DNA of 46,411 bases from Candidatus Vogelbacteria bacterium (lineage in GTDB: Bacteria; Patescibacteriota; Minisyncoccia; Phycocordibacterales; XYD1-FULL-46-19), in contig JAHFNY010000002.1 of the NCBI GenBank assembly GCA_023267075.1, forward strand, positions 1 through 46,411, written 5' to 3'. Every line of letters starts with the position of its first letter. Position 1 is the stretch's first letter. Below are positions 12,765 through 40,917 of this stretch, one piece after another. Under the pieces are notes generated by a model that saw only the letters and a program-made list of their open reading frames with translations, was not told where the DNA came from and made no database searches. The position numbers were made by a program, and so were the translations under genes.

Positions 12765-14426
12765 TTATTTCTTTTCGGCAATCAGTAATATCGACACACC
12801 AAAGGGGAACTTGAGATACCTTAACAATTTTCTTTCAAAATTAAAGAGGCTAAAAAATATTTTATCTAACAGGGGCGTATTAAGATCAAAATCGGACTGA
12901 CGCTTCTTAAGCTTAAAGATTCTACTCGCCAACCGGACCAGAGCAATCGGCAAGAAAAGAATGGTATTGAAATAAGATGAAGAAACAATTTTAAACTCGC
13001 CAGAAGTGAGGACCTTGTCCTTGATCCCACCTAAGGTGTAACGCCGATAATGATGGGCCACTTCATCTTGTACCCCCCAGAGAAATTGATACGCGGGCAC
13101 CATGACGATGAACTTGCCCCCTGGCTTAAGCACTCTTGCCACCTCTTTAATCGCCCAAGATTCATCCTCCAAGTGTTCTAAAACATCCATCGACAACACT
13201 ACATCAAATTGCCGATCGGGATAATTTAATTTATGGGAATCCTGAATGGTCAGATTTTTAATCCCCTTCAACTCGCCAAATTTAATCGCCTCTTCAGAGA
13301 TATCAGTTCCCGAGACATCATATCCCCGCTCGCCCAACTCCCCGACGAAAATCCCCGAACCACAACCAAAATCAAGAATCTTTACCTCCTTGGGCGAACG
13401 AGAAAAATACTTGGTCAAATTGTCTACCACCATCATCCGCCTAACCTTCATTAACCAATGATTCTTCTCTACTTCAAAATAATTTTTATAAAAATTTCTA
13501 TTCATGCCAGAAGTGTTTAGGTCCCATAAATTCCAATTGAACTTGGTAATATATTCTTTAAGGCAAACGTGCCAATCCCGAGTAAGGTGTGGAGCAATTC
13601 TCTTAAGCTCGGTGTTGATTAACTTCTCTGACTTGGGCCGCGGGGCAAAATAATTTTCTTTGAAAAAGCTAGAATCGACTTCTCGGATCTTAACTTGGTC
13701 TGTTACGCCAAGACATTCAAGCAAGTACCGCGCCACATCCGCTCGACTACCACCCCCATCGCAAGCCCCATGATATAGACCATAAGCATCATGGTCAAGA
13801 AGATATTTTATTGATTGAGCCAAGTCATAAGTGTGGCAAGGTGTCCCCAATTTATCATTGACTACCATCAACTCTTTCACCCCCGCCCGTAATTGTTTAA
13901 TGATTTTATTAATAAACTTTTTATCTTTCTTAGGCCCACCACCCATCATCCAACCAGCCCGAATAACAATCGACTTGGGTAAAGTCTTAGCCACCAACTC
14001 CCCGCCATATTTACTTTTACCATACACACTCAAAGGATTAGGAGTATCAATTTCTAAATACTCTTCTTTAACGCCATCAAAGATCCCCGCAGTAGAAATA
14101 TAGACTAGAGGAATATTATGTTCCCGGGCATATTGAGCCACATTTTCTACCCCACCGGTATTAGTGGCATAAGCCTCTTTAGGGTGGAGCTCGCAATATT
14201 CCATATCGGTTAAAGCTGCCAAATGGACAATGTAATTAGGCTTGATTTTAGCCAAGTAAGCGGCCACGTTTTTACTAGCCGCTACGTCTAAAAGCTCCAA
14301 CCAGGGAGTATTAAGATCAATATCGCTAGCATGAAGCTCGCAAATATCTTTAAAAACGTCATATACCGCCTCACCCAGCATGCCGCCGCAACCGGTTATG
14401 ACTACTCTGTCGCTTTTATGAATCAT
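12765..14426 (-). CDS. fusion protein: RmlD-like SDR (sugar-nucleotide reductase/epimerase) plus a C-terminal SAM methyltransferase
   Basis: The N-terminal part has VVITGCGGMLGEAV, HLAALTDMEYCE and SVYGKSKYGGE (the SDR YxxxK). The C-terminal part has ILDFGCGSGIFVGEL, VLSMDVLEHLED and LKPGGKFIVMVPA. Confidence 0.75.
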   Translation of the reverse strand: MIHKSDRVVITGCGGMLGEAVYDVFKDICELHASDIDLNTPWLELLDVAASKNVAAYLAKIKPNYIVHLAALTDMEYCELHPKEAYATNTGGVENVAQYAREHNIPLVYISTAGIFDGVKEEYLEIDTPNPLSVYGKSKYGGELVAKTLPKSIVIRAGWMMGGGPKKDKKFINKIIKQLRAGVKELMVVNDKLGTPCHTYDLAQSIKYLLDHDAYGLYHGACDGGGSRADVARYLLECLGVTDQVKIREVDSSFFKENYFAPRPKSEKLINTELKRIAPHLTRDWHVCLKEYITKFNWNLWDLNTSGMNRNFYKNYFEVEKNHWLMKVRRMMVVDNLTKYFSRSPKEVKILDFGCGSGIFVGELGERGYDVSGTDISEEAIKFGELKGIKNLTIQDSHKLNYPDRQFDVVLSMDVLEHLEDESWAIKEVARVLKPGGKFIVMVPAYQFLWGVQDEVAHHYRRYTLGGIKDKVLTSGEFKIVSSSYFNTILFLPIALVRLASRIFKLKKRQSDFDLNTPLLDKIFFSLFNFERKLLRYLKFPFGVSILLIAEKK

Positions 14427-29173: not shown

Positions 29174-29201
29174 TTGATTTTTGAAGAAACTTTGTTATAG
29201 T
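29174..29201 (+). promoter_or_regulatory. sigma70-type promoter for tRNA-Ile
   Basis: TTGATT (29174-29179), 16-nt spacer, TGtTATAGT (hexamer at 29196-29201). The tRNA starts 14 nt downstream. Confidence 0.6.
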
Positions 29202-29214
29202 CTGAAGGTTATTT

Positions 29215-29288
29215 GCGTGTGTAGCTCAGCTGGTTAGAGCACGTCACTGATAATGACGAGGCCGTAGGTTCGAGTCCTACCACACGCA
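29215..29288 (+). tRNA. tRNA-Ile (anticodon GAT)
   Basis: The cloverleaf folds by hand: acceptor GCGTGTG/CACACGC, D arm GCTC-AGCTGGTTA-GAGC, anticodon arm CGTCA-CTGATAA-TGACG, T arm GTAGG-TTCGAGT-CCTAC, discriminator A. No CCA is encoded. Confidence 0.9.
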
Positions 29289-29304
29289 CCGTGTGAGTTT
29301 TTTT
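29281..29304 (+). terminator. hairpin plus T-run that shares the tRNA 3' acceptor strand
   Basis: CACACG-CAC-CGTGTG, followed by AGTTTTTTT (T-run at 29298-29304). Confidence 0.5.
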
Positions 29305-29810
29305 CTCGTTCTAGCAGGTAGTCAAGAGGAAAATGTGGTGTCAATTCGACGTTTTTTCGGTCAACCAAGCGGTTCGAGGTTGCAAATCTAACTAAATCGC
29401 GTTTTTCTTCGGAATTTGCCACTTTATAGTTAATCCAGGCCGTATTTGCGAGTTCGAGGATTCCCTGCACCTTAGATGGAATCTGTTGCTCTGTACCACT
29501 CGAAAGTTCCTGAATTTGTTCCTCTAGCCCCTTTCGCTCGAATAGCAGAGATTCCTTTCTCCTTTCAAAGGCTTCGCGATCGAGGGCTTGTTCCAAATAG
29601 GCGTCGGTCAACCGATCCATTCGGTCATTTGTTCGGGCTATTTGAAGGTTCAAACTTCGACTAATTTCTTCCTTTTTCGACTCCCACTTCTCGCTGTGCC
29701 TGGCTATTTCTTGGACCAAGTATCGCCATTCTTTTTCGCTAAACTGTAGCTGCTTGAAGAGAGCGAGAATTGCCTCATCGACTAGTTCCTCTCGTATTCC
29801 GGTGTCGATT
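29289..29810 (-). pseudogene. 3' fragment of a large serine recombinase gene (coiled-coil/C-terminal region only)
   Basis: The C-terminal ~170 aa of track ORF 29234..30061 read TNDRMDRLTDAYLEQALDREAFERRKESLLFERKGLEEQIQEL...ELANTAWINYKVANSEEKRDLVRFATSNRLVDRKNVELT. This resembles the C-terminal part of recombinase-family proteins. No resolvase catalytic domain is present, the N-terminal 85 aa look non-coding, and the ORF tail is antisense to the tRNA. Confidence 0.55.
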
Positions 29811-29811
29811 G

Positions 29812-30182
29812 CGTGCGAAATCAGCGTCAGTACATCGCCGGCACACGAATTGTCCAACATTGAAAAATGCCTTACCGCCGGATACACCCAAGTCGCGGTC
29901 ATATCTTCTGACGCGAAAAAACTTGCGGACATTGAAAAACAAACCAAGGCCAAATTCCTCAGCGAGCAGTTAATGCGAATACACTTCGTGACGCCGGAAC
30001 AATTGTTCGCAATCATTGAACGTTTTGAAGCGATGTCGGCAAGCACGGTGAAAACAGTCAAAGGCTACCGGGTAAAAGTGAATTATCAGCCGGTTGGCTC
30101 GAAGGACAAGCAGGCCCGGAGACGGGTTGTATCAAATGTAATTACGTCGGCTCTAGGTCGTATACGGTCAAGAAAAGGCTAG
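29812..30182 (+). pseudogene. orphan C-terminal gene fragment of unknown (mobile-element-type?) protein
   Basis: This is the C-terminal part of track ORF 29754..30182 (ACEISVSTSPAHELSNIEKCLTAGYTQVAVISSDAKKLADIEKQ...). It looks protein-like, but it has no plausible N-terminus and abuts the recombinase fragment head to head. Confidence 0.3.
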
Positions 30183-30469
30183 CAGATGATCGCCTATGTT
30201 ACGCAATCACGCAACATCGTTACGCAACGCAACAAAGATCTGTCGAAATAGCCTCTACGGTGACATTTTTCCTGCAAGCATATCCACCTAACGCCGAAAT
30301 CAGACCAATGTTTAAGATTGGCTACGATTCAAGGCTTACTCCTTGCAGTAATATCAGTTCTAGGTTATAGTCTTCAAATAATAGCCCTTCCTCGTGAGGC
30401 AACTGCTCACGGCGATCGGTTACAAACCCAATCCCTATGCAACAATCCGGCAGTAGCAAGGAGAAAGAC

Positions 30470-30793
30470 ATGCACGAAAACAGCAAGTATTCCGTAATCA
30501 TCACTACCTGTGGAACCCGTGAATCAGCAGAAAAAATCGCGGGGGCACTCTTGGATCAAAAACTTGCCGCATGCATTCAAATTTTTGATGTCACGAGCCT
30601 CTATACATGGAAGGGGCAGGTAAACAAGGACAACGAAAGTCTCCTTCTTATCAAGGCCAAAGCGGAACTCTACAATGAGATTGAGGAGTGTATTCGTCAG
30701 AATCATACCTACGAAGTACCGGAGATCGTGCAACTTCCGATAGTCAACGGATTCAGCTCATACCTCCAGTGGATCTCAGAGGTCAGTAAATGA
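30470..30793 (+). CDS. cutA: CutA1 divalent-cation tolerance protein
   Basis: Contains YSVIITTCGTRESAEKIAGALLDQKLAACIQI, WKGQV and HTYEVPEIVQLPI. A strong SD (AAGGAG) lies 6 nt upstream of ATG 30470. Confidence 0.8.
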   Translation: MHENSKYSVIITTCGTRESAEKIAGALLDQKLAACIQIFDVTSLYTWKGQVNKDNESLLLIKAKAELYNEIEECIRQNHTYEVPEIVQLPIVNGFSSYLQWISEVSK

Positions 30794-31086
30794 CCATTAC
30801 TGGTTCTATTCTCCTTTCCAGCGCGGCCACAATTGGGGGGTTTTTTCTTCGTCTCGCATATGAGTTCGTCAGAGATAAACGTCGATTCAAAAAAGAACTG
30901 CGCGACAACAATCACATAGACGTATCTGGAACTGATTGGCACGCTGCTTGGCAGACAAGCGTCGAAATCTGGTGGAGCGCGTACCGTCGCGTGAACTGCG
31001 TCTGGTTCAGGCTTCGAATTAGTTCACGTCACGTAGAAAGGTTATCTGCGGCCTACAAGATACCCGGACGAAATAAATCAGGCTAG
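30790..31086 (+). CDS. hypothetical; N-terminal TM helix, probably frameshifted after ~60 codons
   Basis: Its start overlaps the cutA stop as ATGA. The first part is protein-like (SILLSSAATIGGFFLRLAYEFVRDKRRFKKEL). The remainder is W/R-rich, and another frame reads more plausibly. Confidence 0.3.
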   Translation: MTITGSILLSSAATIGGFFLRLAYEFVRDKRRFKKELRDNNHIDVSGTDWHAAWQTSVEIWWSAYRRVNCVWFRLRISSRHVERLSAAYKIPGRNKSG

Positions 31087-31131
31087 TCATCCGAAAAAGG
31101 TCATTGGCAGCCCTGAAAGTCCACGTCCTTC

Positions 31132-31165
31132 AGAAAAGAAGCCTCGCCATACTTACTGGCGAGGC
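31132..31165 (-). terminator. rho-independent terminator (minus strand)
   Basis: GCCTCGCC-N9-GGCGAGGC, an 8-bp stem at 31141-31148 / 31158-31165. On the minus strand it is followed by TTCTTTTCT. Confidence 0.6.
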
Positions 31166-31259
31166 GAACAAACTGTTTCCACGACGCCAATCATCAAGTT
31201 GCGCTTGGCGATATCTCGGCTCCAAAAATTGCGGAGTATATTCTTTGGACCAACGTAAA

Positions 31260-31514
31260 TTATCGAATCAAAGACTCCTTGTCTTCCGTCAGCGTAATCC
31301 AGTCTCTAACCAATGTGAGCGACCTGATTAGGGGTACAATGTCTCGAGGAGTAAATACCTTCGTCTTCTGAATCCGATTTCCCCGACAGCAAGACTTGAA
31401 AACTAAGATCCTAAGCCTAAACCCGTCATTCCCCAATCTCCCGAAAACTTGCACCGATATACAATTTAATGTCGTGTCGTGGATTAGACTCCAGTTACGA
31501 TTGAAACAAGCCAT
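31260..31514 (-). pseudogene. decayed small gene with a strong SD
   Basis: GAGGAGG lies 8 nt upstream of ATG 31514. After the TAA at 31260 the same frame continues through one more in-frame stop towards the terminator at 31132-31165. Confidence 0.3.
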
Positions 31515-31747
31515 CTAGATTTCCTCCTCGCCGACGGCGATAACTCACCGCCCCCACAATGGAGGCGGTAAGAACGCCGGGCGAAAAGTCCATCAGACAA
31601 CCTTAGTGGAAATCATAACCGCTTAACATCTGGCTATCACATATCAATATCCAAATACAGCATATATCTGTTTATACATTTGTCAAGTTATATATACTCT
31701 ATCCAAAACCTCGGATGCACTAACCGGAACAGACTAATCTTCTCTCT

Positions 31748-33073
31748 TCATTCCGCGTCAAGATTTGGAAAAAGAAAATCCGATTTCCGTTTGGCCATTC
31801 TTAAAATCGACACTATTTCCGTTTCTTTACTGACCTCCGACAAATGCCACATAGACTTGAGAAATGCTAATCGTATGTTCATGTATTTAATACTCACGTC
31901 ACATCCAATACTAAATGGTACGCCAGTCGCGGGATCGAGTAGAAAGGGTCCATACTGGTAATTACTAAAATCAGGTTCACTTGAAATGTTTTCTCTACTC
32001 AAAAAAACCTTGGCTTCCTTCTCCTTCTCGATCCAGCGGTCTAATACCGAACAAAGGCTCCTAGTGAGAGCAAGATATCCGATCAAAGATTCAAGTCGCC
32101 TGGAATGAAGTTGCTTTTCACACAGGCCAGTAATACCAAAATCCACATCTGCAGGGCGGGCAAAAGTCCACTTACTTTCAAGAAATCCGGCTATTTGCTT
32201 ATCAACCTTCTTATTTGTACTCCCAAGTGCCTTGAACCATTCGCGCCTCAACGCCTTAACTCTCGGTTTGTCTTTGCACTCCTCGCTGTTTTGCCCAAGA
32301 AACATATCGACCGCCCGCACAATTCTAACGAAATAGGACAAAATCGGTGTGCTTTGAATTTTATCTGACAGCCGCTCCGTAAGCATTCGTCTATACTCCA
32401 CATGAATAATTGATTCTAAGTCGTCATTCTGAATTTGTCTGGCAAAAGTATCCCACCATTCTTTGACGTGATCGCACCATTCTTGGGGAGTACGTGTCAT
32501 CGGGCCTTTTGTCCCATACTTCAACAAGGACCAAACAAGAAAACATCGAACTAGATGTTCGAGCAACAATACATCCTTACGCGACCCCTCTTGCTGGGAT
32601 GTCTTAGGATGCAAGGCAAGCAACCGTAAATGGGTCCTGCAGTAAACATTGGGTATGCCTCCAAAAACGAGAATTCCCAGAATATACTCGACGGCCATTT
32701 CTTTCAGCTCGGCGGATAAGGCACTATGATCTGTATCATCTGGTGGAATATCAAGCAGCTTCAGTACTTTCTCCCCTTCGAGGTCTGGGCGCGCGCGAGT
32801 GAAACGACCGGCAAGCTGAAGAGTGACGGCCAGCGTCTTTCTTATGTCGTGAAATGCTGCGATCTTGAGCTCGGGAAGATCAAAGCCTTCTCCCAACATG
32901 TCTACACAGACGATGATTCGCGCCTCTTTAGAGACAATCTTTTGCCGGATCAACTCACGCTGTCGGACCGACTTAATGCCTGTGTGGAGTTGGACGGGGT
33001 TAAACTCCGGGTACTGTCTGTACAGTTCGAAGACTTCCTTCGCGCGGGCGACGTTTTCGACACGGGCCATCAA
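31748..33073 (-). pseudogene. superfamily-2 helicase C-terminal half plus unknown C-terminal domain (N-terminal ATPase half lost or degraded)
   Basis: Contains helicase motifs V/VI: IIVCVDMLGEGFDLPELKIAAFHD and QLAGRFTRA. The frame continues upstream (CPAKAIADCAIERLRHDRKKGHIL) to an in-frame TAG only 24 codons above the track start. I found no Walker A or DExH motif in any frame up to ~33330. Confidence 0.6.
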
Positions 33074-33568
33074 AATATGGCCCTTCTTCCTATCATGGCG
33101 AAGTCGTTCTATAGCACAGTCTGCAATGGCCTTGGCAGGGCACTACCGAACGATGCGACAGGGGCTAAGCAGCCTGTTATTGCGATTACGGTCTACGACG
33201 AGCGATAAGTGGAATCCAGAAGAATAACACTGGCAACGTAGCGCTTGTATCGGCAGCGGTGAGATAGAATCGGAGTGGCAATGAACCTACGGTGCCAATT
33301 ATTCCAGTGTTTTGACGAGATGTGAGTAAGATCGCAAGGACTTCGAGACGTTGGCAGAGACAATCACTTAGTTCTTTGTAGAGGGCGAAGTAGACTTGGG
33401 GACTTCAGGGACTTTGTTTTGATAGTGCGCTATAATCTTTTCAACCATATCGCGCAACACCTTGAAAGTTCGAGGTCTGTCTCGATACGGGGCACACTTT
33501 TTAAGTAAAAGAAAAGGCCCGGCCGCACTGCGAGAGTACGGGGGGGCCAAATGTGAACGAGAAAACAT

Positions 33569-33784
33569 TCAGGGGACGACGACTTCCACCTTAAGACCTT
33601 GAAACATATGGGTCTCGGTAATATGTCCGGTTGGCGCTGAAAACCAAACATGATCAGCATCTTGTGGACCTTGAGTTTTGATCCTGTGAACAGCAATCAA
33701 CATAGCCATCACAAAAAGTGTCGCTATGGCCCAATACCACCACTGATGCTTGCGAGATAACATCGCATCAAAAAATCGGTTCAT
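33569..33784 (-). CDS. small single-TM protein (hypothetical)
   Basis: GGAGGAG lies 7 nt upstream of ATG 33784. One TM helix (WWYWAIATLFVMAMLIAV). Confidence 0.4.
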   Translation of the reverse strand: MNRFFDAMLSRKHQWWYWAIATLFVMAMLIAVHRIKTQGPQDADHVWFSAPTGHITETHMFQGLKVEVVVP

Positions 33785-33985: not shown

Positions 33986-34011
33986 AGTATCCTTTCTTTT
34001 GTTCCGTTTAT
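33986..34011 (-). repeat. 3' (trailer) half of the 16S precursor processing stem
   Basis: 33993-34011 is the exact reverse complement of 36484-36502 (19 bp). With two G-U pairs and five more Watson-Crick pairs, the helix extends to 26 bp. Confidence 0.75.
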
Positions 34012-34178
34012 AGAGGCTTTTACGAGATCCTCCAACTCACGTTGATTGTTACTCCTGCTCTTTCGAAACGAGCACGATGAGGGCTACAACGATCCCTCTC
34101 CCCACTCTAGTCTTGCGACCGTGAGTGGGGACGACCTGTAAGTAATAGGCTGACGCCCATTACAGACTGGAATAAATT
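34012..34178 (-). other. hairpin-rich 167-nt segment between 16S helix 45 and the processing stem (3' extension or insertion)
   Basis: On the rRNA strand: UAAUGGGC-GUCA-GCCUAUUA; CCCCACUC...GUC-GCAA-GAC...GAGUGGGG; GAGGG-N10-CCCUC; UGCUC...GAGCA; CAAC-GUGA-GUUG. There is no CCUCC anywhere in it. Confidence 0.6.
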
Positions 34179-34296
34179 CCACGACCAGCTTCCGCTAGCC
34201 GTGCCTTGTTACGACTTAACCCTTGTCACCGAGCTTACCGTAGGGTCGCCAAAGGCGACACTTTGGGCATTCCCGGCTCCCTTGGCTTGACGGGCG

Positions 34297-35145
34297 ATTA
34301 TCTTTTAGAAACTTAAAATTGATGTTCCCACGTAGCAGGCGGATTTCCCGCACTACGCGAGCTCTAGTGCATTTTGGCCTTTAGCTTAGCTAAACGGACC
34401 AAACCAGCTTGGGTGTGATGAACACCCCGTTCAATCAATGTAAGCATTTGGCAAAACAATTCAAAATCACGCCTTTTTGAAGGTAATCGCAAGCGATTTT
34501 TCTTGAAAAAGGGAACGATTATTTTACCCAAATGATCACGATGAGTGACCTCAAAACGATAACAGTGTTGATGATTACGACGATTATCTTTCTGGAAATA
34601 GACATTACCACAACCAAAATATAATTTAAGTTGATCAAGAATAGTTTTATCCTTCTCAATCAACTTGAGATAAAAACGTGGTTCCGCTTTTACCCGACGT
34701 TTAACTTTAGGCGAAGTAGCCTCTCGGACATAAACCGTAAAGCTGCCTTCGCCATCTACTAAACCAACAATGTAATCTTTTGTAAGCATTTAGACACTAG
34801 AGTGAGCCCTTCTCCCTATATAATTTGGGATACTATGGCTCAGCTGACTTCTGACGCTGCGTAAGTTTCATTATACCTCGCCTAACGGCGGATAACAACG
34901 TCAGATCTCCACAGGTAAGTTATAGCACTCTTCCCTTCATCCTCAACGTGACTTGTCTTAGATCTTCACCACGCTCACCGCCCCTCCGTGGTTCAATCAT
35001 CACTTTTTATGTTAAGGCTAAAGTTTGCTTCCAGATCCTTCACCCTAGACCTCGCGGTGCTAGGGCTATCTTTCAGCTACGCTCTGGGACGACCAGAGGA
35101 GTCGATTTTAACGACTTAGTTCTATAACCAGCTGCGCGCTTTTAT
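34297..35145 (-). mobile_element. 16S rRNA intervening sequence encoding a homing endonuclease
   Basis: Conserved 16S sequence stops after ...GTACTCAC (E. coli ~1399) at 35146 and resumes with CGCCCGTCA (E. coli 1400-) at 34296. The 849 nt between contain the LAGLIDADG ORF on the same strand. Confidence 0.85.
34364..34789 (-). CDS. single-motif LAGLIDADG homing endonuclease
   Basis: 141 aa. It has the motif YIVGLVDGEGSF near the N-terminus, and its size fits homodimeric I-CreI-type enzymes. It lies inside the rRNA insertion. Confidence 0.85.
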   Translation of the reverse strand: MLTKDYIVGLVDGEGSFTVYVREATSPKVKRRVKAEPRFYLKLIEKDKTILDQLKLYFGCGNVYFQKDNRRNHQHCYRFEVTHRDHLGKIIVPFFKKNRLRLPSKRRDFELFCQMLTLIERGVHHTQAGLVRLAKLKAKMH

Positions 35146-36146
35146 TGTGAGTACAAGACTCGAGAACGTATTCACCGCAGTATAGCTGACCTGCGATTAC
35201 TAGCGATTCCAACTTCATGAGGTCGAGTTGCAGACCTCAATCCGAACTGGGGCCACCTTTAAGGATTAGCTCAGAGTTTCCTCGTCGCAACCTTTTGTAA
35301 TGGCCATTGTATCATGTGTGTAGCCCAGGATGTCAGAGGGACATGCTGACTTGGCGTCATCCTCGCTTCCTTTCGCCAGAGGCGAACAGTCTCGCGTGAC
35401 ACTTGTAACACGCGACGAGGGTTGCGTTCGTTTCCCCACTGAAGGGAACAACTCAAGCCACGAACTGACGACAGCCATGCATCACCTGCCCAACCGTCCT
35501 TGTGAGACATCTCAAGTTTCCTCGAGACTTCGTTTGGGTTTCAAACCCTGGTGAGGTTCTTCGTTTAGCGTCGAATTAAACCACATGATCCACCGCTTGT
35601 GCGAGTCCCCGTCTATTCTTTTGAGTTTTAGCCTTGCGGCCGTACTTCCCAGGCGGATCACTTAACGCGTTAGCTACGGCTCTCAGAGGGTCGATACTCC
35701 GAAAACCTAGTGATCATCGTTTAGGGCGTGGACTACTGGGGTATCTAATCCCATTCGCTACCCACGCTTTCGTGTTTCAGTGTCAGCTGAGTGCCAGCTA
35801 GCTGCCTTCGCTTTTGGTATTCCCCATGATATCAACGGATTTCACCCCTACACCATGAGTTCTACTAGCCCCTCACCCGCTCCAGTTTGGCCGTTTCCCT
35901 CGCCGCTTCCCGGTTAAGCCGGGAGATTTAACAAGAGACTAACCAGACCACCTACACACCCTTTACGCCCAATAATTCCGGATAACGCTTGGACCACTCG
36001 TCTTACCGCTGCTGCTGGCACGAGTTTAGCAGGTCCTTATTCATGAGGTACTATCAATAAAATTTCTCCCTCATAAAAGATGTTTACGCGCCGAAGCGCT
36101 TCATCCACCACGCGACATCGCTCCATCAGACTTTCGTCCATTGTGG

Positions 36147-36177
<31 letters not shown>

Positions 36178-36483
36178 ATGGGCCGTGTCTCAGTCCCATC
36201 GGTGGGGGTCAGGCTCTCACCTCCCCTACGCGTCATAGCCTTGGTAAGCCATTACCTTACCAACTAGCTGATACGTCGCAGGCCGCTCCCCAAGCGATAA
36301 ATCTTTACTCTTTCGAGACTATCGGGAATTATCTCGCCTTTCGGCGAGTTATGCCCGACTTGGGGGTGCGTTCCTACGTGTTACTACCTCGTTCGCCATG
36401 CCCCTTGCGGAGCATTCGACTTGCATGCCTTATCCATGTCGCCAGCGTTCATCCTGAGCCAAGATCAAACTCTTAGTTTAAAG

Positions 36484-36509
36484 ATAAACGGAACAAAAGA
36501 AAAAATACT
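36484..36509 (-). repeat. 5' (leader) half of the 16S precursor processing stem
   Basis: Complementary to 33986-34011 (see that feature). It ends only about 3-10 nt upstream of the mature 5' end. Confidence 0.75.
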
Positions 36510-36746: not shown

Positions 36747-37613
36747 TTAATTGGTGGATACTGTCTCCCCCGACGCCTTAGGAATATCAATCATGGCTAG
36801 CACTGGGTGATTAGCCGGAAGAACTTCCCGTAGGGTTTTCTCAAGACTTTCTCTAACCGCCCCAGCTCCTTTCGATTTCATGAACCGTTTAGAAGCTTCC
36901 AGATAACCTATGGCTTCAACTATCCCCCCAATCAACTTAGATTGTCTGGAGTAGTTAAAAGTAAAATAGGAGTGAAACGCGCTAAATTTTTTCAAAACCC
37001 ATCGAATCTCTGCAAAATCATGAGAATAAAACTCGCAGCACGATAGTAGATCTAAACCAATCAGTCTGTTACCTTGGTCATCTTTTATGTCAACCTCAGT
37101 AAAAGATAGATTGGAAAATCTTGCCAAACAGTAACCATACTTCATCCTGGTCCAAAGATAATGACCAAAGAACGAAAACAAGGACAATCGCAAACTAATA
37201 AATTCACCTTGGTTTCGTAGCCCCTCCTTGAACCAGGAGTCTTTGGTGGTAGTAGTAACCACAAAACCAGCCAATTTTTTACTGTGTATGTTATCCTCGC
37301 TGGTAGGATCAAGTTCACCTTCGATATCTTTCACCAAGACCCAGAGCTTGTAGCCGATGACGTTGTGCCGCCACCATTCGATTAGTCCTTGACGGAAGCG
37401 GATAACTATAACCAGCCAAACACACAACGAAATCGACATCAGAATTTGGTCCACGTAGCCCAAGTCGTTGTGGATATGACCAACGTGAAGTGACCACAGA
37501 TTATTCGGGATCAGATACATGGCAATAACAAAAGCCAACGGATACAGCCAGAGATAAATCTTCGGCCGATACTGCTTCGCCTCTTCCAAACTACTCAACT
37601 TAATCGCGTTCAT
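36747..37613 (-). CDS. hypothetical membrane protein (2 N-terminal TM helices plus a ~190-aa soluble domain)
   Basis: AAGGAG lies 7 nt upstream of ATG 37613 (MNAIKLSS), which is codon 22 of the track ORF. TM helices are IYLWLYPLAFVIAMYLI and ILMSISLCVWLVIVIRF. I recognise no family. Confidence 0.6.
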   Translation of the reverse strand: MNAIKLSSLEEAKQYRPKIYLWLYPLAFVIAMYLIPNNLWSLHVGHIHNDLGYVDQILMSISLCVWLVIVIRFRQGLIEWWRHNVIGYKLWVLVKDIEGELDPTSEDNIHSKKLAGFVVTTTTKDSWFKEGLRNQGEFISLRLSLFSFFGHYLWTRMKYGYCLARFSNLSFTEVDIKDDQGNRLIGLDLLSCCEFYSHDFAEIRWVLKKFSAFHSYFTFNYSRQSKLIGGIVEAIGYLEASKRFMKSKGAGAVRESLEKTLREVLPANHPVLAMIDIPKASGETVSTN

Positions 37614-37737
37614 CTCTTTTCTCCTTTCCGGCCCAAAAAGGGCGGGATGTGCGTCGGGTGTAGTCTCTAGCCACAAGCTAGTCTAACCGGACCACCAATT
37701 TCAAGGAACTAAATCAGGACCACCCTGACTTAGCCGT

Positions 37738-37779: not shown

Positions 37780-38577
37780 TTACAAACTACCTGGAAATTT
37801 AAGAATCTTTAGCTGACTTTCTATACACTTTTCAATATACCCAACAAATTTTGTTATTTTTTCTTCTGGAAGTAAATCCACTAAAAAATATTCCGATCGC
37901 AATAAACCGCCTGTTGGTATTTTTTGTTCAAAAGCATATCTAGTTTCAAGTTGTAAATAATCAACATCATAAGTAGACCAGTTTTGATCTCCTATATTCT
38001 TACAAAAAATATTACTATCAGTCTTGTAAATAACCATTGGAAAACTCACAATACCACCTTTAATAGTAGCGGCTAATTCTTTTTCAGTCCATAAACCAAG
38101 ATCTTTCCTATCTCTAAAAAATATTAACGAATTTAAAACTTGATTTACAGCTTTAAAAATAGGCTCATTTTCCGTATCTTTTGATTGTTTTCCCTCAGTT
38201 TCTCCACAAAACATTTTTATAACTTTATTTTCTTCTCCATAATGAAGTTCTTTTGTATAAACATTACTTCCAAAGGTATCCCTTATACCGTAAGTTTTTT
38301 GTATGAGTTTTTCAGAGTTTATTTTATCCTTACCATCTAACCAAAGATAAATATCATTTGTTAAATTTTTACATTCAATAATCAATCTTAATAAGACATA
38401 AACGTATTCTTCTCCAAAAAACCACGGTAATGGTATAATCTTTTCACAAATAATATCTAATTCACGTGGTAAGTCTCTACCAGTATCGACATAATATGGA
38501 CTAATTAAAGCCTTCCAGCCCAGCTTTCTTAGTTCAACAACAACTCTCTCAGTGAGATTATTGCCGTGATTTATCAT
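37780..38577 (-). CDS. predicted PD-(D/E)xK-fold nuclease with an uncharacterised C-terminal domain
   Basis: The N-terminus has E...D...ExK spacing: ERVVVELRKLGW (helix), ELDIICEK (D strand), LIIECKN (ExK). The gene is very AT-rich: 12 and 17 G+C of 60 in lines 38101 and 38281, against 31 of 60 in secF line 38701. Start taken at ATG 38577, because the track start 38616 overlaps the end of secF. Confidence 0.5.
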   Translation of the reverse strand: MINHGNNLTERVVVELRKLGWKALISPYYVDTGRDLPRELDIICEKIIPLPWFFGEEYVYVLLRLIIECKNLTNDIYLWLDGKDKINSEKLIQKTYGIRDTFGSNVYTKELHYGEENKVIKMFCGETEGKQSKDTENEPIFKAVNQVLNSLIFFRDRKDLGLWTEKELAATIKGGIVSFPMVIYKTDSNIFCKNIGDQNWSTYDVDYLQLETRYAFEQKIPTGGLLRSEYFLVDLLPEEKITKFVGYIEKCIESQLKILKFPGSL

Positions 38578-38605
38578 AGTTTGTTTATCTTTTGTGCTAG
38601 ATTTA

Positions 38606-39535
38606 CTATGATTCATCTAAAAATTTCTTCCCCTTATTTGAAACGTGCTTTTCGGAGAATTTATTCCAGGTTACGAGGAGGGGTGAAGCGATGAAGATGG
38701 AAGAGTAGGTACCCACGATCATACCAATAGTAAGAGCAAGGGCGAAGTCGCGCGTGGTCTCCCCGCCGAAGAAGTAGAGCGCGAGCAAGGCGAGGATCAC
38801 GGTTAAGGAGGTGTTAATGGACCGAGTGAAAGTTTGCGAGAGCGAGATGCCCACCGTTTCTTCAAAGTGAGGTGAGATTTTAAGTTTTAAGTTTTCCCGG
38901 ATCCGGTCAAAGACAACGATGGTGTCGTTTACAGAAAGACCAAGAATCGTAAGGAGCGCGGTTAAGAAAAGGGCGTCAATTTCCGTCCCGTGAATGGCAC
39001 CCAAGTAGGCAAAGACGCCGGTGGGGATGAGGAGATCGTGCACCAGCGTGGCAATGGCAATGAGACCATATTTCCAAGAAGAAACTGGTCGCGAGACCCC
39101 GCGGAAGGCGAAGGTAATAAATAAAATAATTAAGAGCGAGACTAAACTAATGGCAATAATCGCCTTTTGGGCTAATTCCGCCCCGAGCGACGGGCCAATA
39201 GAACTAAATTGTTTCTCGACTACCGAAGAAGTGGCGTTTAAAGCGGCGGCTTGAATCAGCGTATTTTTCTCATCATTGGTAATAGTCCGAAGGCGCATCA
39301 CCAGACCTTGATCACCAGTCGGTTGAACAGAGACGGTCCCAAGATTAAGTTTATTAACCGCGGCGCGAATGTCATCAATCGCCGGCCGAGTGCCAGTGTA
39401 ATTAAGCTCCACAATTGTCCCCCCTTTAAAATCAATGCCGAAGTTAAGACCAAAGAAGATCATCGCCGCAAGAGAAGCGAGGAGGGCAAAGCCAGAGAGA
39501 AGATAGAAAAATTTTCGGTATTTAATGACCCACAT
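38606..39535 (-). CDS. secF: protein translocase subunit SecF
   Basis: Contains LNFGIDFKGGT and LSVNDTIVVFDRIREN. 309 aa and polytopic. Confidence 0.9.
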   Translation of the reverse strand: MWVIKYRKFFYLLSGFALLASLAAMIFFGLNFGIDFKGGTIVELNYTGTRPAIDDIRAAVNKLNLGTVSVQPTGDQGLVMRLRTITNDEKNTLIQAAALNATSSVVEKQFSSIGPSLGAELAQKAIIAISLVSLLIILFITFAFRGVSRPVSSWKYGLIAIATLVHDLLIPTGVFAYLGAIHGTEIDALFLTALLTILGLSVNDTIVVFDRIRENLKLKISPHFEETVGISLSQTFTRSINTSLTVILALLALYFFGGETTRDFALALTIGMIVGTYSSIFIASPLLVTWNKFSEKHVSNKGKKFLDES

Positions 39536-39559
39536 ATGTTTATAGCTTCGTTAGCTTCA

Positions 39560-40879
39560 TTAGCTTTTTAGGCCAGAAGAAAATAAAAAGGTTGATAATT
39601 TGGTTTTGTGTTTTACCCCCAAAGCTAAGAGGAAAGTCCGGGTCACACTAATCGCCGTGAACATGGAAAGGACAGTTCCTAAAGCAAAAGTGAGGGCAAA
39701 GCCTTTAATCAGCGCCGTGCCGAACCAGAACAAAATAATACCGGCAATAATGTGAGCAATATTAGAATCGCGGATGGCGAGCCACGCCCGCGAGAAACCA
39801 GCGCTAATTGCCTCATGCATCTTCTGCTCTTTCTTCAACTCTTCCTTCAAGCGTTCAAAAATGAGGACATTGGCATCCACCGCAATACCGATAGACAGAA
39901 TAAAACCGGCAATCCCCGCGGCGGTAAGCGTGACCGGCACCAGTTTAAAAATGGCAAGCATCAGGGCGCTATAAATGGCGAGTGACACCACCGCCACCAC
40001 GCCCGGCAAGCGATACCACACAATCATAAAGAGGGCGATAATGAGAAAGCCCATCTCCCCCGCCTTGACCCCCTTAGCTAAAGCGTCAGCGCCAAGGGTG
40101 GCGCCAATCGTCTCGGTAGAAGAAAGAGTAATCGGCACCGGCAGAGCCCCAAGATTTAAATTGCGGACCAAAGTTTTAGCCTCATCTACTGTGAACTGAC
40201 CATTGATCTCGGCCTTTCCATCCAGGATTGGTTCATTCACCACCGGAGCGGAGAGGAGATTACCATCCAAATAAATGGCGAGCGGCTTGCCGACATTAGC
40301 TTTAGTAATCTCGCCGAAAAGTTTAGACCCATCAGCATTAAAAGTCAGACTAATCGATGGCCCGAGCGAATTCTGACCGTAGGTCACTTGGGCTTGCTTC
40401 AAAAAGCGACCCGTGAGACCAGAAGTAATAAATGGATCAGTGCCACTCGCCACGTTTGCCAAATCATTAATCGTTTTACCCAGTGGCAGAACTTTAAATT
40501 CCAATACCGGCGTTTGAGCAATAATCGCTAGCGCTTGCTTAAGATCCGTCACGCCGGGTAACTCCACCAACAAGCGGTGTTTGGCACTGTCACCAAGACC
40601 AGCTTGCTCGGTTTGGACTAATGGTTCCGAGACGCCGAAGACATTGACCCGCTTCTCAATCACGTCGCGGAGTGAGCTCATGGCATCACCCACATCAGCC
40701 GGGTTAAGGGTAGAAGTGTTGGCATCGTAGATGAGGCGGGTCCCGCCCGAGAGATCCAGGCCCAGCTTAAAAGGCCGGCTTAAGAAGGCATTAGGCGCCA
40801 CCTCGGAGTGGTAAACATAAAAGCCGACGGCGAGGCCGGCGATAAGCAATAAAACGGCAATTACCCGAGTTTTAATCAT
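39560..40879 (-). CDS. secD: protein translocase subunit SecD
   Basis: Contains LGLDLSGGTRLIYDA and GIAVDANVLIFERLKEE. Start taken at ATG 40879 (MIKTRV), because the upstream track codons contain the TATAAT box. Confidence 0.9.
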   Translation of the reverse strand: MIKTRVIAVLLLIAGLAVGFYVYHSEVAPNAFLSRPFKLGLDLSGGTRLIYDANTSTLNPADVGDAMSSLRDVIEKRVNVFGVSEPLVQTEQAGLGDSAKHRLLVELPGVTDLKQALAIIAQTPVLEFKVLPLGKTINDLANVASGTDPFITSGLTGRFLKQAQVTYGQNSLGPSISLTFNADGSKLFGEITKANVGKPLAIYLDGNLLSAPVVNEPILDGKAEINGQFTVDEAKTLVRNLNLGALPVPITLSSTETIGATLGADALAKGVKAGEMGFLIIALFMIVWYRLPGVVAVVSLAIYSALMLAIFKLVPVTLTAAGIAGFILSIGIAVDANVLIFERLKEELKKEQKMHEAISAGFSRAWLAIRDSNIAHIIAGIILFWFGTALIKGFALTFALGTVLSMFTAISVTRTFLLALGVKHKTKLSTFLFSSGLKS

Positions 40880-40889
40880 AGACCTGGCC

Positions 40890-40917
40890 ATTATAGCCAA
40901 ACGGGCTTAAAAATCAA
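40890..40917 (-). promoter_or_regulatory. secDF promoter giving a very short leader
   Basis: The minus strand reads TTGATT (40917-40912), 16-nt spacer, TATAAT (40895-40890). The ATG is 10 nt after the -10 box, and there is no SD. Confidence 0.55.

Follow-up and report, generated by a model that had tools for sequence, protein, structure and literature searches.

The question raised by this locus is what has become of the anti-Shine–Dalgarno (anti-SD) sequence of a bacterial 16S rRNA. The stretch analyzed here (46,411 nt, positions 1 to 46,411 of contig JAHFNY010000002.1 from Candidatus Vogelbacteria bacterium; hereafter the window) carries a single bacterial 16S rRNA gene on its minus strand (Rfam RF00177, 1280.6 bits), and coordinates at the 16S locus are given on that strand throughout. 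An earlier note on this DNA had pointed to a structured segment of 167 nt (34012-34178) after helix 45, at the place where a tail with CCUCC is expected, and had considered an anti-SD lost or changed to AUUCC, a novel 3'-terminal expansion, or an intervening sequence free of open reading frames (ORFs) whose downstream exon is missing. Based on covariance-model alignment, comparison with related loci and analysis of gene starts, it is considered quite likely that the 16S rRNA of this lineage lost its anti-SD by substitution, that the flagged segment is the trailer of the 16S precursor (pre-16S), and that translation initiation is independent of the Shine–Dalgarno (SD) interaction.

Loss of the anti-SD sequence from the 16S 3' tail

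Helix 45 (CACGGCUAGC-GGAA-GCUGGUCGUG, 34203-34180) is intact, as the earlier note had read it; all of its pairs are standard in the small-subunit (SSU) model alignment and are invariant in 19 relatives. The sequence that follows reads GAAUUUAUUCC. When the second exon of the gene was searched alone with RF00177, model positions 1387-1533 were aligned to 34300-34167 with 75.7 bits, helices 44 and 45 were intact, and GGAAUUUAUUCCAG was placed opposite GGAUcACCUCCUUu with matches limited to G, A, U and C (4 matches). This alignment, which the earlier note had proposed as a check, found no CCUCC-containing tail: GAUCACCUCCUUU, with its anti-SD, is not at the 16S 3' end, and its homologue by position is a degenerate tail of about 13 nt, GAAUUUAUUCCAG (34167..34179), in which AUUCC appears as the positional equivalent of CCUCC. 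The mature 16S 3' end probably lies near 34167-34179. The sole copy of CCUCC on the rRNA strand from 36800 to 28000 is at 31565-31561, about 2.4 kb past the processing stem, and the reported lack of this motif from 34179 down to that stem is thereby confirmed. A search of both window strands for CACCUCCUU with up to two mismatches and for exact CCUCC gave nothing usable near the 16S gene. Two cryptic candidates were rejected, namely ACCUCUUAAG (~33960), which is located beyond the processing stem, and CCUCU (34016-34012), which is strand S2 of the pseudoknot described below and varies freely in sequence among relatives. The anti-SD sequence is truly gone from this 16S rRNA. In a simple scan, helix 45 together with the U-rich tail (GAAUUUAUUC, 34171-34203) resembles an intrinsic terminator, as a canonical tail would not; the score probably reflects mere A/U richness.

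The distribution of this tail type was followed in two sets of relatives. A scan of species-representative genomes with a pattern for the helix 45 type of the window gave 120 loci, nearly all from Parcubacteria/Paceibacterota or similarly labelled metagenome-assembled genomes (MAGs) of the Candidate Phyla Radiation (CPR), and a metagenome scan with a longer, family-level pattern gave 41 further loci. The 16S rRNA of the window shares 81-84% identity with the top-matching genome loci, among them Taylorbacteria, Adlerbacteria and Paceibacterota MAGs, and can be assigned on this ground to the Parcubacteria type (Paceibacteria, CPR/Patescibacteria). CCUCC is missing in 153 of the 160 related loci with a readable tail, which come from genomes and metagenomes, mostly of Parcubacteria/Paceibacteria sharing the helix 45 type of the window, and is kept in 7. 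In the 153 loci, the CCUCC position is taken by AUUUC, AUUCA, UAUCC or AUUCC, and the non-canonical tails are A/U-rich (for example GAAUAAUUCAAUUUGAA, GAACAUAUCCAAUUGGAA, GAUUAAUUCCAAUUGGA and GAUUUAUUUCAAAUUGAAC). Across the family-level relatives, a tail of 19 nt is nearly invariant, although its neighbors are hypervariable.

The available text of Tsurumaki et al. (2022, RNA 28:1041, PMC9297842) gives the anti-SD CCUCCU as detected in only 48% of Parcubacteria 16S genes, with the anti-SD-less Parcubacteria overlapping the group that lacks uL1, and infers that SD helices do not form there. This is the same phenomenon in the same lineage as the 16S rRNA of the window, and together with the anti-SD-less tails in 153 of the 160 loci it means that the loss is a published lineage trait and the core fact is not new. 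The locus is therefore unusual, as the earlier note had called it, versus bacteria generally, but represents the norm within its own lineage. No rplA-region genes were seen within the 46-kb window, which is part of the genome. As far as its available text goes, the 2022 paper (PMC9297842) reports the absence of the motif but is silent on the sequence that took its place, on how the trailer is built and on SD or leaderless usage by the genes; the layout of the trailer and the leaderless signature set out below add to it. Loss of the anti-SD is rare in bacteria, and it implies a whole lineage initiating translation without SD pairing.

A small hairpin after helix 45 connects the two tail types. 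In the canonical-tail relatives, the anti-SD pairs with a downstream GGGAG or AAGGAG (CUCC-UUUCUA-GGGAG). Of 134 unique tails, 67 have a hairpin of at least 4 bp starting 6-8 nt after helix 45 (mean of 26 and maximum of 37 in shuffled tails), and 111 have one of at least 3 bp at the same position (58 in shuffled tails). Its stem is CUCC/GGAG in canonical tails and UUCA/UGAA, CUCA/UGAG, UCCA/UGGA, UUCC/GGAA or UGUC/GACG in non-canonical ones, and such compensatory differences at one position argue that the non-canonical tail is a substituted homologue of the canonical tail. The anti-SD would accordingly have been lost by substitution, with the tail changed and not replaced. In the window itself the small hairpin is lost, and the tail CC is predicted to contribute to the basal pairs of the first trailer hairpin (HP1). 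A single locus, L064 (CAYUQA010000031.1), has the canonical GAUCACCUCCUUUCU directly followed by AUUCAAUUGAAA, a sequence typical of non-canonical tails. Either the locus is an intermediate stage of evolution, which would hint that deletion caused the loss in some lines, or its assembly is chimeric.

The structured segment as a probable trailer, and the processing stem

The whole 16S transcription unit is closed by the processing stem that the earlier note had mentioned, a duplex of 26 bp (36509-36484 with 34011-33986). Its 5' strand, AGUAUUUUUUCUUUUGUUCCGUUUAU (36484..36509), ends 10 nt before AGAGUUUGAUC, and its 3' strand is AUAAACGGAACAAAAGAAAGGAUACU (33986..34011). Within the latter, AACGGAAC..GAAAG (AACGGAACAGAAGAAAG strand) is kept and pairs with the leader in 10 relatives, and homologues of the leader-trailer stem were found in these 10 relatives and in four canonical-tail CPR loci. 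Folding of long leaders against trailers gave meaningless whole-length duplexes, and leader sequences alone were used from it. In the relatives with a canonical anti-SD (L002, L061, L080 and L113), 88-121 nt lie between helix 45 and the stem, with a first hairpin and GGUCGA after the anti-SD. Because these relatives also carry a structured trailer of 88-121 nt inside the stem, the flagged segment is best read as an ordinary structured pre-16S trailer, that is, a spacer from the 16S 3' end to the stem, and not as a new domain. The idea of a novel 3' expansion in place of the tail is thus contradicted on three sides: the tail of about 13 nt is still present, the segment lies inside the processing stem, and canonical relatives have structured trailers as well.

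The length of the trailer also finds an explanation. The connectors, counted as leader plus trailer nucleotides, have similar sums in the window (10+168), in relatives (5+242, 26+168 and 73+129) and in canonical loci (90+111 and 48+101), and the window puts nearly the whole connector on the 3' side. The trailer may be long because only 10 nt separate the leader strand of the stem from the 16S 5' end, so that the connector moves to the trailer. In Escherichia coli and Bacillus subtilis, the leader-trailer stem of pre-16S is cut by RNase III, and the window is alike in that a long duplex of the 16S flanks encloses the rRNA, with spacers between the duplex and the rRNA ends. The connector of E. 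coli comprises about 115 nt on the 5' side and 33 nt on the 3' side, whereas that of the window comprises 10 nt before the 5' end and 168 nt after helix 45, the latter highly structured and containing a pseudoknot.

Folding of 34205-33985 gave z = -5.70, and the first 82 nt gave z = -6.29, with 0 of 200 shuffles as good. The segment consists of five structural modules, four hairpins and an H-type pseudoknot, together with a conserved GUCGAU-like motif, and this modular trailer is conserved in 41 family-level loci, which share with the window the order tail, HP1, motif, HP2, HP3, HP4, box, pseudoknot and stem strand. HP1 (CCAGUCUGUAAUGGGC-GUCA-GCCUAUUACUUACAGG, 34135..34170) takes in the CC of the tail at its base in both the minimum free energy and the centroid folds; a hairpin stands at the same place in every relative, and both its sequence and its length (~20 to >100 nt) are hypervariable. 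It is followed by GGUCGUC (AGGUCGUC in the window, 34130..34136), a copy of the GUCGA(U) motif that reads GGUCGAU or GGCGAU in relatives. GTCGA occurs in 55% of 117 diverse loci (8% would be expected), its median distance from helix 45 being 46 nt; it directly follows the first trailer hairpin, also in loci with canonical tails, and has the look of a sequence-specific signal. In canonical relatives, single folds had suggested GUCGAU as a pairing partner of the tail (GAUCA/UGGUC); this was not supported, because a test of own versus swapped tails showed no co-variation (-2.30 versus -2.30 kcal/mol, p = 0.29).

HP2 (CCCCACUC..GGUC-GCAA-GACU..GAGUGGGG, 34100..34130) is predicted from folds, and its position in relatives holds a perfect hairpin of unrelated sequence. 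HP3 (GAGGG-AUCGUUGUAG-CCCUC, 34079..34098) has GGUG/CACC and GAGUG/CACUC as stem variants beside the GAGGG/CCCUC of the window, with 96% of alignment cells paired and three of four pairs compensatory. HP4 (UCGUGCUC-GUUUCGAAA-GAGCAGGA, 34053..34077), with a conserved UUUCGAAR loop, has 97% of cells paired and seven of eight pairs compensatory. A single-stranded box, GUAACAAUCAAC in the window and AGAACAAUGAAU in relatives (34041..34052), contains an AACAA that is invariant in the alignments; the box, with its AACAAU, resembles the boxA-like element of the leader. The pseudoknot (34011..34039) adjoins the 3' strand of the processing stem and is formed by S1 (UGAG, 34039-34036, with CUCG, 34026-34023) and S2 (UGGAGG, 34034-34029, with CCUCUA, 34016-34011), which are 83% and 87% paired, with nine of nine pairs compensatory; S2 is GGUUG/CAACC, UGUUA/UGACA and others in relatives. 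The SD-like GGAGGAUC that had been noticed is present at 34033-34026, and its GGAGG and the sole CCUCU are the two strands of S2. Because S2 varies freely in sequence among relatives, GGAGG is not an SD, nor CCUCU an anti-SD. Of the five hairpins counted earlier, two with GNRA loops, five structural modules and the GCAA loop of HP2 are upheld, but the GUGA hairpin competes with the pseudoknot, which comparative data favor. In some of the more distant relatives (e.g., L124), a pseudoknot of the same topology and unrelated sequence is apparent by eye.

The structure named here (HP3, HP4, S1 and S2) was tested on a MAFFT alignment of 19 sequences, in which 89.4% of cells were paired versus 72.7% in shuffled alignments and at most 48.6% in slid controls, and 17 of 21 pairs were compensatory. 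A covariance model, R1, built on HP3, HP4 and S2, matched the module directly after the 16S gene in all family-level relatives whose trailer was long enough, as well as in one GTDB genome, and gave weak but correctly placed matches in Parcubacteria farther removed. When 27 distinct sequences were aligned with this model, 91.9% of cells were paired and 19 of 21 pairs compensatory, values that 0 of 500 shuffles reached, and all four pairs of S1, which lies outside the R1 model, had changed on both sides. BLAST of the 167-nt segment against the 120 genome loci gave zero matches, and similarity of the trailer is seen only at the family level or via the structure model.

A possible course of maturation can be proposed from this layout. 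The 13 nt after helix 45 (34179-34167) would be the substituted tail within which the mature 3' end lies, and the trailer (34166-34012) would span from there to the 3' strand of the stem. In the first step, RNase III, which is retained in CPR, could cut the leader-trailer stem, and further endo- or exonucleolytic trimming may then remove the trailer. Genes for RNase III (rnc), RNase J (rnj) and PNPase (pnp) are kept in CPR bacteria, which are mostly without era (PMC12641178).

The alternative that survives best is that the mature 16S rRNA keeps the structured trailer, wholly or in part (such as the tail with HP1, or all of it as far as the RNase III cut), as a new 3' domain. This domain could serve in place of the lost anti-SD, for example as a platform element for docking or occlusion. 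The strongly conserved, covarying helices, the nearly invariant tail and the conserved GUCGAU motif would all suit a retained element, as would the small set of RNases in CPR and the stalling of PNPase at stable hairpins. Retention in the canonical relatives, which carry a structured trailer and GGUCGA after the anti-SD, would however bury that anti-SD; HP1 and HP2 are hypervariable, from ~20 to >100 nt, which is typical of spacers and not of ribosomal domains; and the location of the segment within the processing stem is that of trailers in other bacteria. Retention is consequently regarded as unlikely. A broader and still speculative proposal, given slightly more credence, is that the tail, GUCGAU and pseudoknot make the trailer a CPR-specific cis-acting scaffold for assembly and processing, which would make up for the loss of 30S biogenesis factors, for instance RimM and Era (the latter normally reads GAUCACCUCC, its binding site in the literature), or else that the mature 30S retains a part of the trailer as a 3' extension in place of the anti-SD region of the platform. 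The conserved parts of the trailer (GUCGAU and the pseudoknot) offer concrete targets for the study of rRNA maturation in organisms lacking many biogenesis factors.

Translation initiation in the window and its relatives

The link that the earlier note had drawn to SD-less genes in the window is supported by the gene starts. An SD core at -18..-5 was found in 9% of 33 window ORFs, and among 494 ORFs of the relatives with non-canonical tails SD enrichment was at background level (0.10 versus 0.09 in the control). Hexamers resembling a -10 promoter box occur 4-9 nt before the ATG in 24% of the window ORFs and in 22% of the 494 ORFs of relatives, versus 6% at the control position; the enriched upstream 5-mers are -10-box words, and the upstream regions are A-rich. 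In the window, TATAAT-like boxes stand 4-9 nt before the ORF starts at 14426, 19801, 21462, 26041, 43303, 44118 and 45021, all without SD motifs. Many genes thus look leaderless, and the rest seem to have A-rich upstream regions without SD motifs. As part of the account proposed here, and with the same good probability, initiation in this organism would proceed without SD pairing. The window is a clean example in which a degenerate tail, SD-less genes and promoters adjoining start codons occur together, and SD-reliant gene finders will mis-call starts in such genomes.

The genes of Bacteroidota are SD-poor, and their 16S rRNA keeps an anti-SD CCUCC that is unused. The window shares with them the SD-less genes and A-rich upstream regions but differs in that the CCUCC sequence itself is gone. 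Actinobacteria and Deinococcus are rich in leaderless mRNAs, keep the canonical anti-SD and use SD motifs for many genes; the window shares the -10 boxes a few nucleotides before the starts and differs in the loss of the anti-SD.

It could also be supposed that the anti-SD was altered and not lost, so that a new motif before the starts, GGAAU or AAAUAAAU, is complementary to AUUCC or the A/U-rich tail and pairs with it. AUUCC does stand at the CCUCC position, the tail is conserved within the family and the upstream regions are A-rich, but the pairing itself left no trace. The duplex energy between each locus's own tail and the region -20..-3 was no better than that of the control, either for the 494 ORFs (-2.10 versus -2.27 kcal/mol) or in the window (-2.34 versus -3.44 kcal/mol), and motifs complementary to the new tail were not enriched upstream of starts in energy and k-mer tests, the enriched words being those of -10 boxes and not tail complements. 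The predicted fold, moreover, engages the CC of the tail in the basal pairs of HP1. The tail was rejected as a new anti-SD, with neither an energetic nor a k-mer signal, and this alternative is very improbable. Of the earlier suggestion that the anti-SD had been lost or changed to AUUCC, the loss and the homology of AUUCC to CCUCC therefore hold, but there is no sign of a new anti-SD role in these tests.

Several points weigh against substitution, trailer and SD-independent initiation taken together. The near-invariance of the 19-nt tail implies some constraint, which this account does not explain. The proposed trailer removal and the precise position of the mature 3' end rest on homology with the canonical-tail relatives, and stable hairpins would obstruct PNPase, so that an extra endonuclease step must be assumed. 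The sample of relatives is biased by the helix 45 search pattern, and three of the four helices counted had been used to fit alignment A3. ORF starts were approximated by the first ATG, and SD use in the canonical-tail relatives could be read from 22 ORFs, too few to serve as a positive control.

Gene layout, intron and surrounding region

The 16S gene is split by an intron. Exon 1 (35147..36480) extends from the 5' end to about E. coli position 1400 and ends with GUCUUGUACUCAC, its junction being read from the sequence; it is followed by a group-II-like intron of ~850 nt (34297..35146; RF01998, 40.2 bits, above the gathering score) with a single-domain LAGLIDADG_1 homing-endonuclease ORF (34364-34789; Pfam PF00961, E = 1.6e-17), and exon 2 (34180..34296) comprises the CGCCCGUCA decoding-site strand, helix 44 and helix 45 in the SSU model alignment. 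According to the available text of Tsurumaki et al. (2024, J Bacteriol, PMC11270868), position 1400 is the known CPR insertion site 16IS9, and the intron of the window is a typical group-II-like LAGLIDADG_1 member of the CPR insertions. Homologous introns with 65-69% identity occur at the identical site in L077, L045 and L066. The whole-gene Rfam alignment puts the 3' end of the SSU model and the anti-SD columns on intron sequence (AAAAUCGACUCCUCU, 35095-35109); this model end at 35095 is an artefact, because the intron splits the gene. Automatic covariance-model annotation would consequently end the 16S gene ~930 nt too early, inside the intron.

A second intron or intervening sequence without an ORF might lie after helix 45, with the anti-SD on a 3' exon, as the earlier note had considered. 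CPR 16S genes often carry insertions, this one is already interrupted at position 1400, and the portion of PMC11270868 available lists an insertion site at position 1498. That site is, however, the 3'-most of those reported there, and the flagged segment is off the reported sites and has neither an intron family nor a 3' exon. No group I or group II family matched 34166-34012 at E<=10, no CCUCC precedes the processing stem, and the sole CCUCU is one strand of a helix of freely varying sequence in relatives. In 153 of the 160 loci, helix 45 is immediately followed by the non-canonical tail, and the anti-SD of the canonical relatives is upstream of the first trailer hairpin, not downstream. A missing exon can hence be given hardly any weight. 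An assembly artefact or a decaying 16S pseudogene, to which the decayed look of the neighboring 29.2-33.6 kb and the lack of linkage to a 23S gene might point, is the least credible explanation and is discounted because the tail type is shared across the lineage, the same architecture being found in 41 independent metagenome contigs and >100 MAGs, with a leader and trailer 2.5 kb apart that are complementary over 26 bp and universal 16S helices that all score normally.

Upstream of the gene, the rrn promoter TTGACT-16-TATAAT (36673-36646; 11 of 12 matches in a promoter scan) is followed by a leader hairpin (36639-36622) and the boxA-like CUUUGACAAUCGAUCC (36585-36570); the leader layout is alike in relatives, in which the boxA-like element is conserved in the same order of elements. 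A strong terminator (36721-36696) parts this promoter from the upstream genes, which include secD and secF (38606-40900, minus strand) and, between these and the 16S gene, two ORFs without a Pfam match (36747-37676 and 37780-38616). On the downstream side, the stem is immediately followed by a terminator in several relatives. No 23S gene follows the 16S gene in the window, and the two are unlinked. The region 29200-33600 contains only fragmentary overlapping ORFs, among them a Helicase_C fragment (31748-33073, minus strand), whereas genes are densely packed elsewhere; it has the appearance of decayed or mobile DNA. A tRNA-Ile (GAT) gene is found at 29215-29290 on the strand opposite to the 16S gene.

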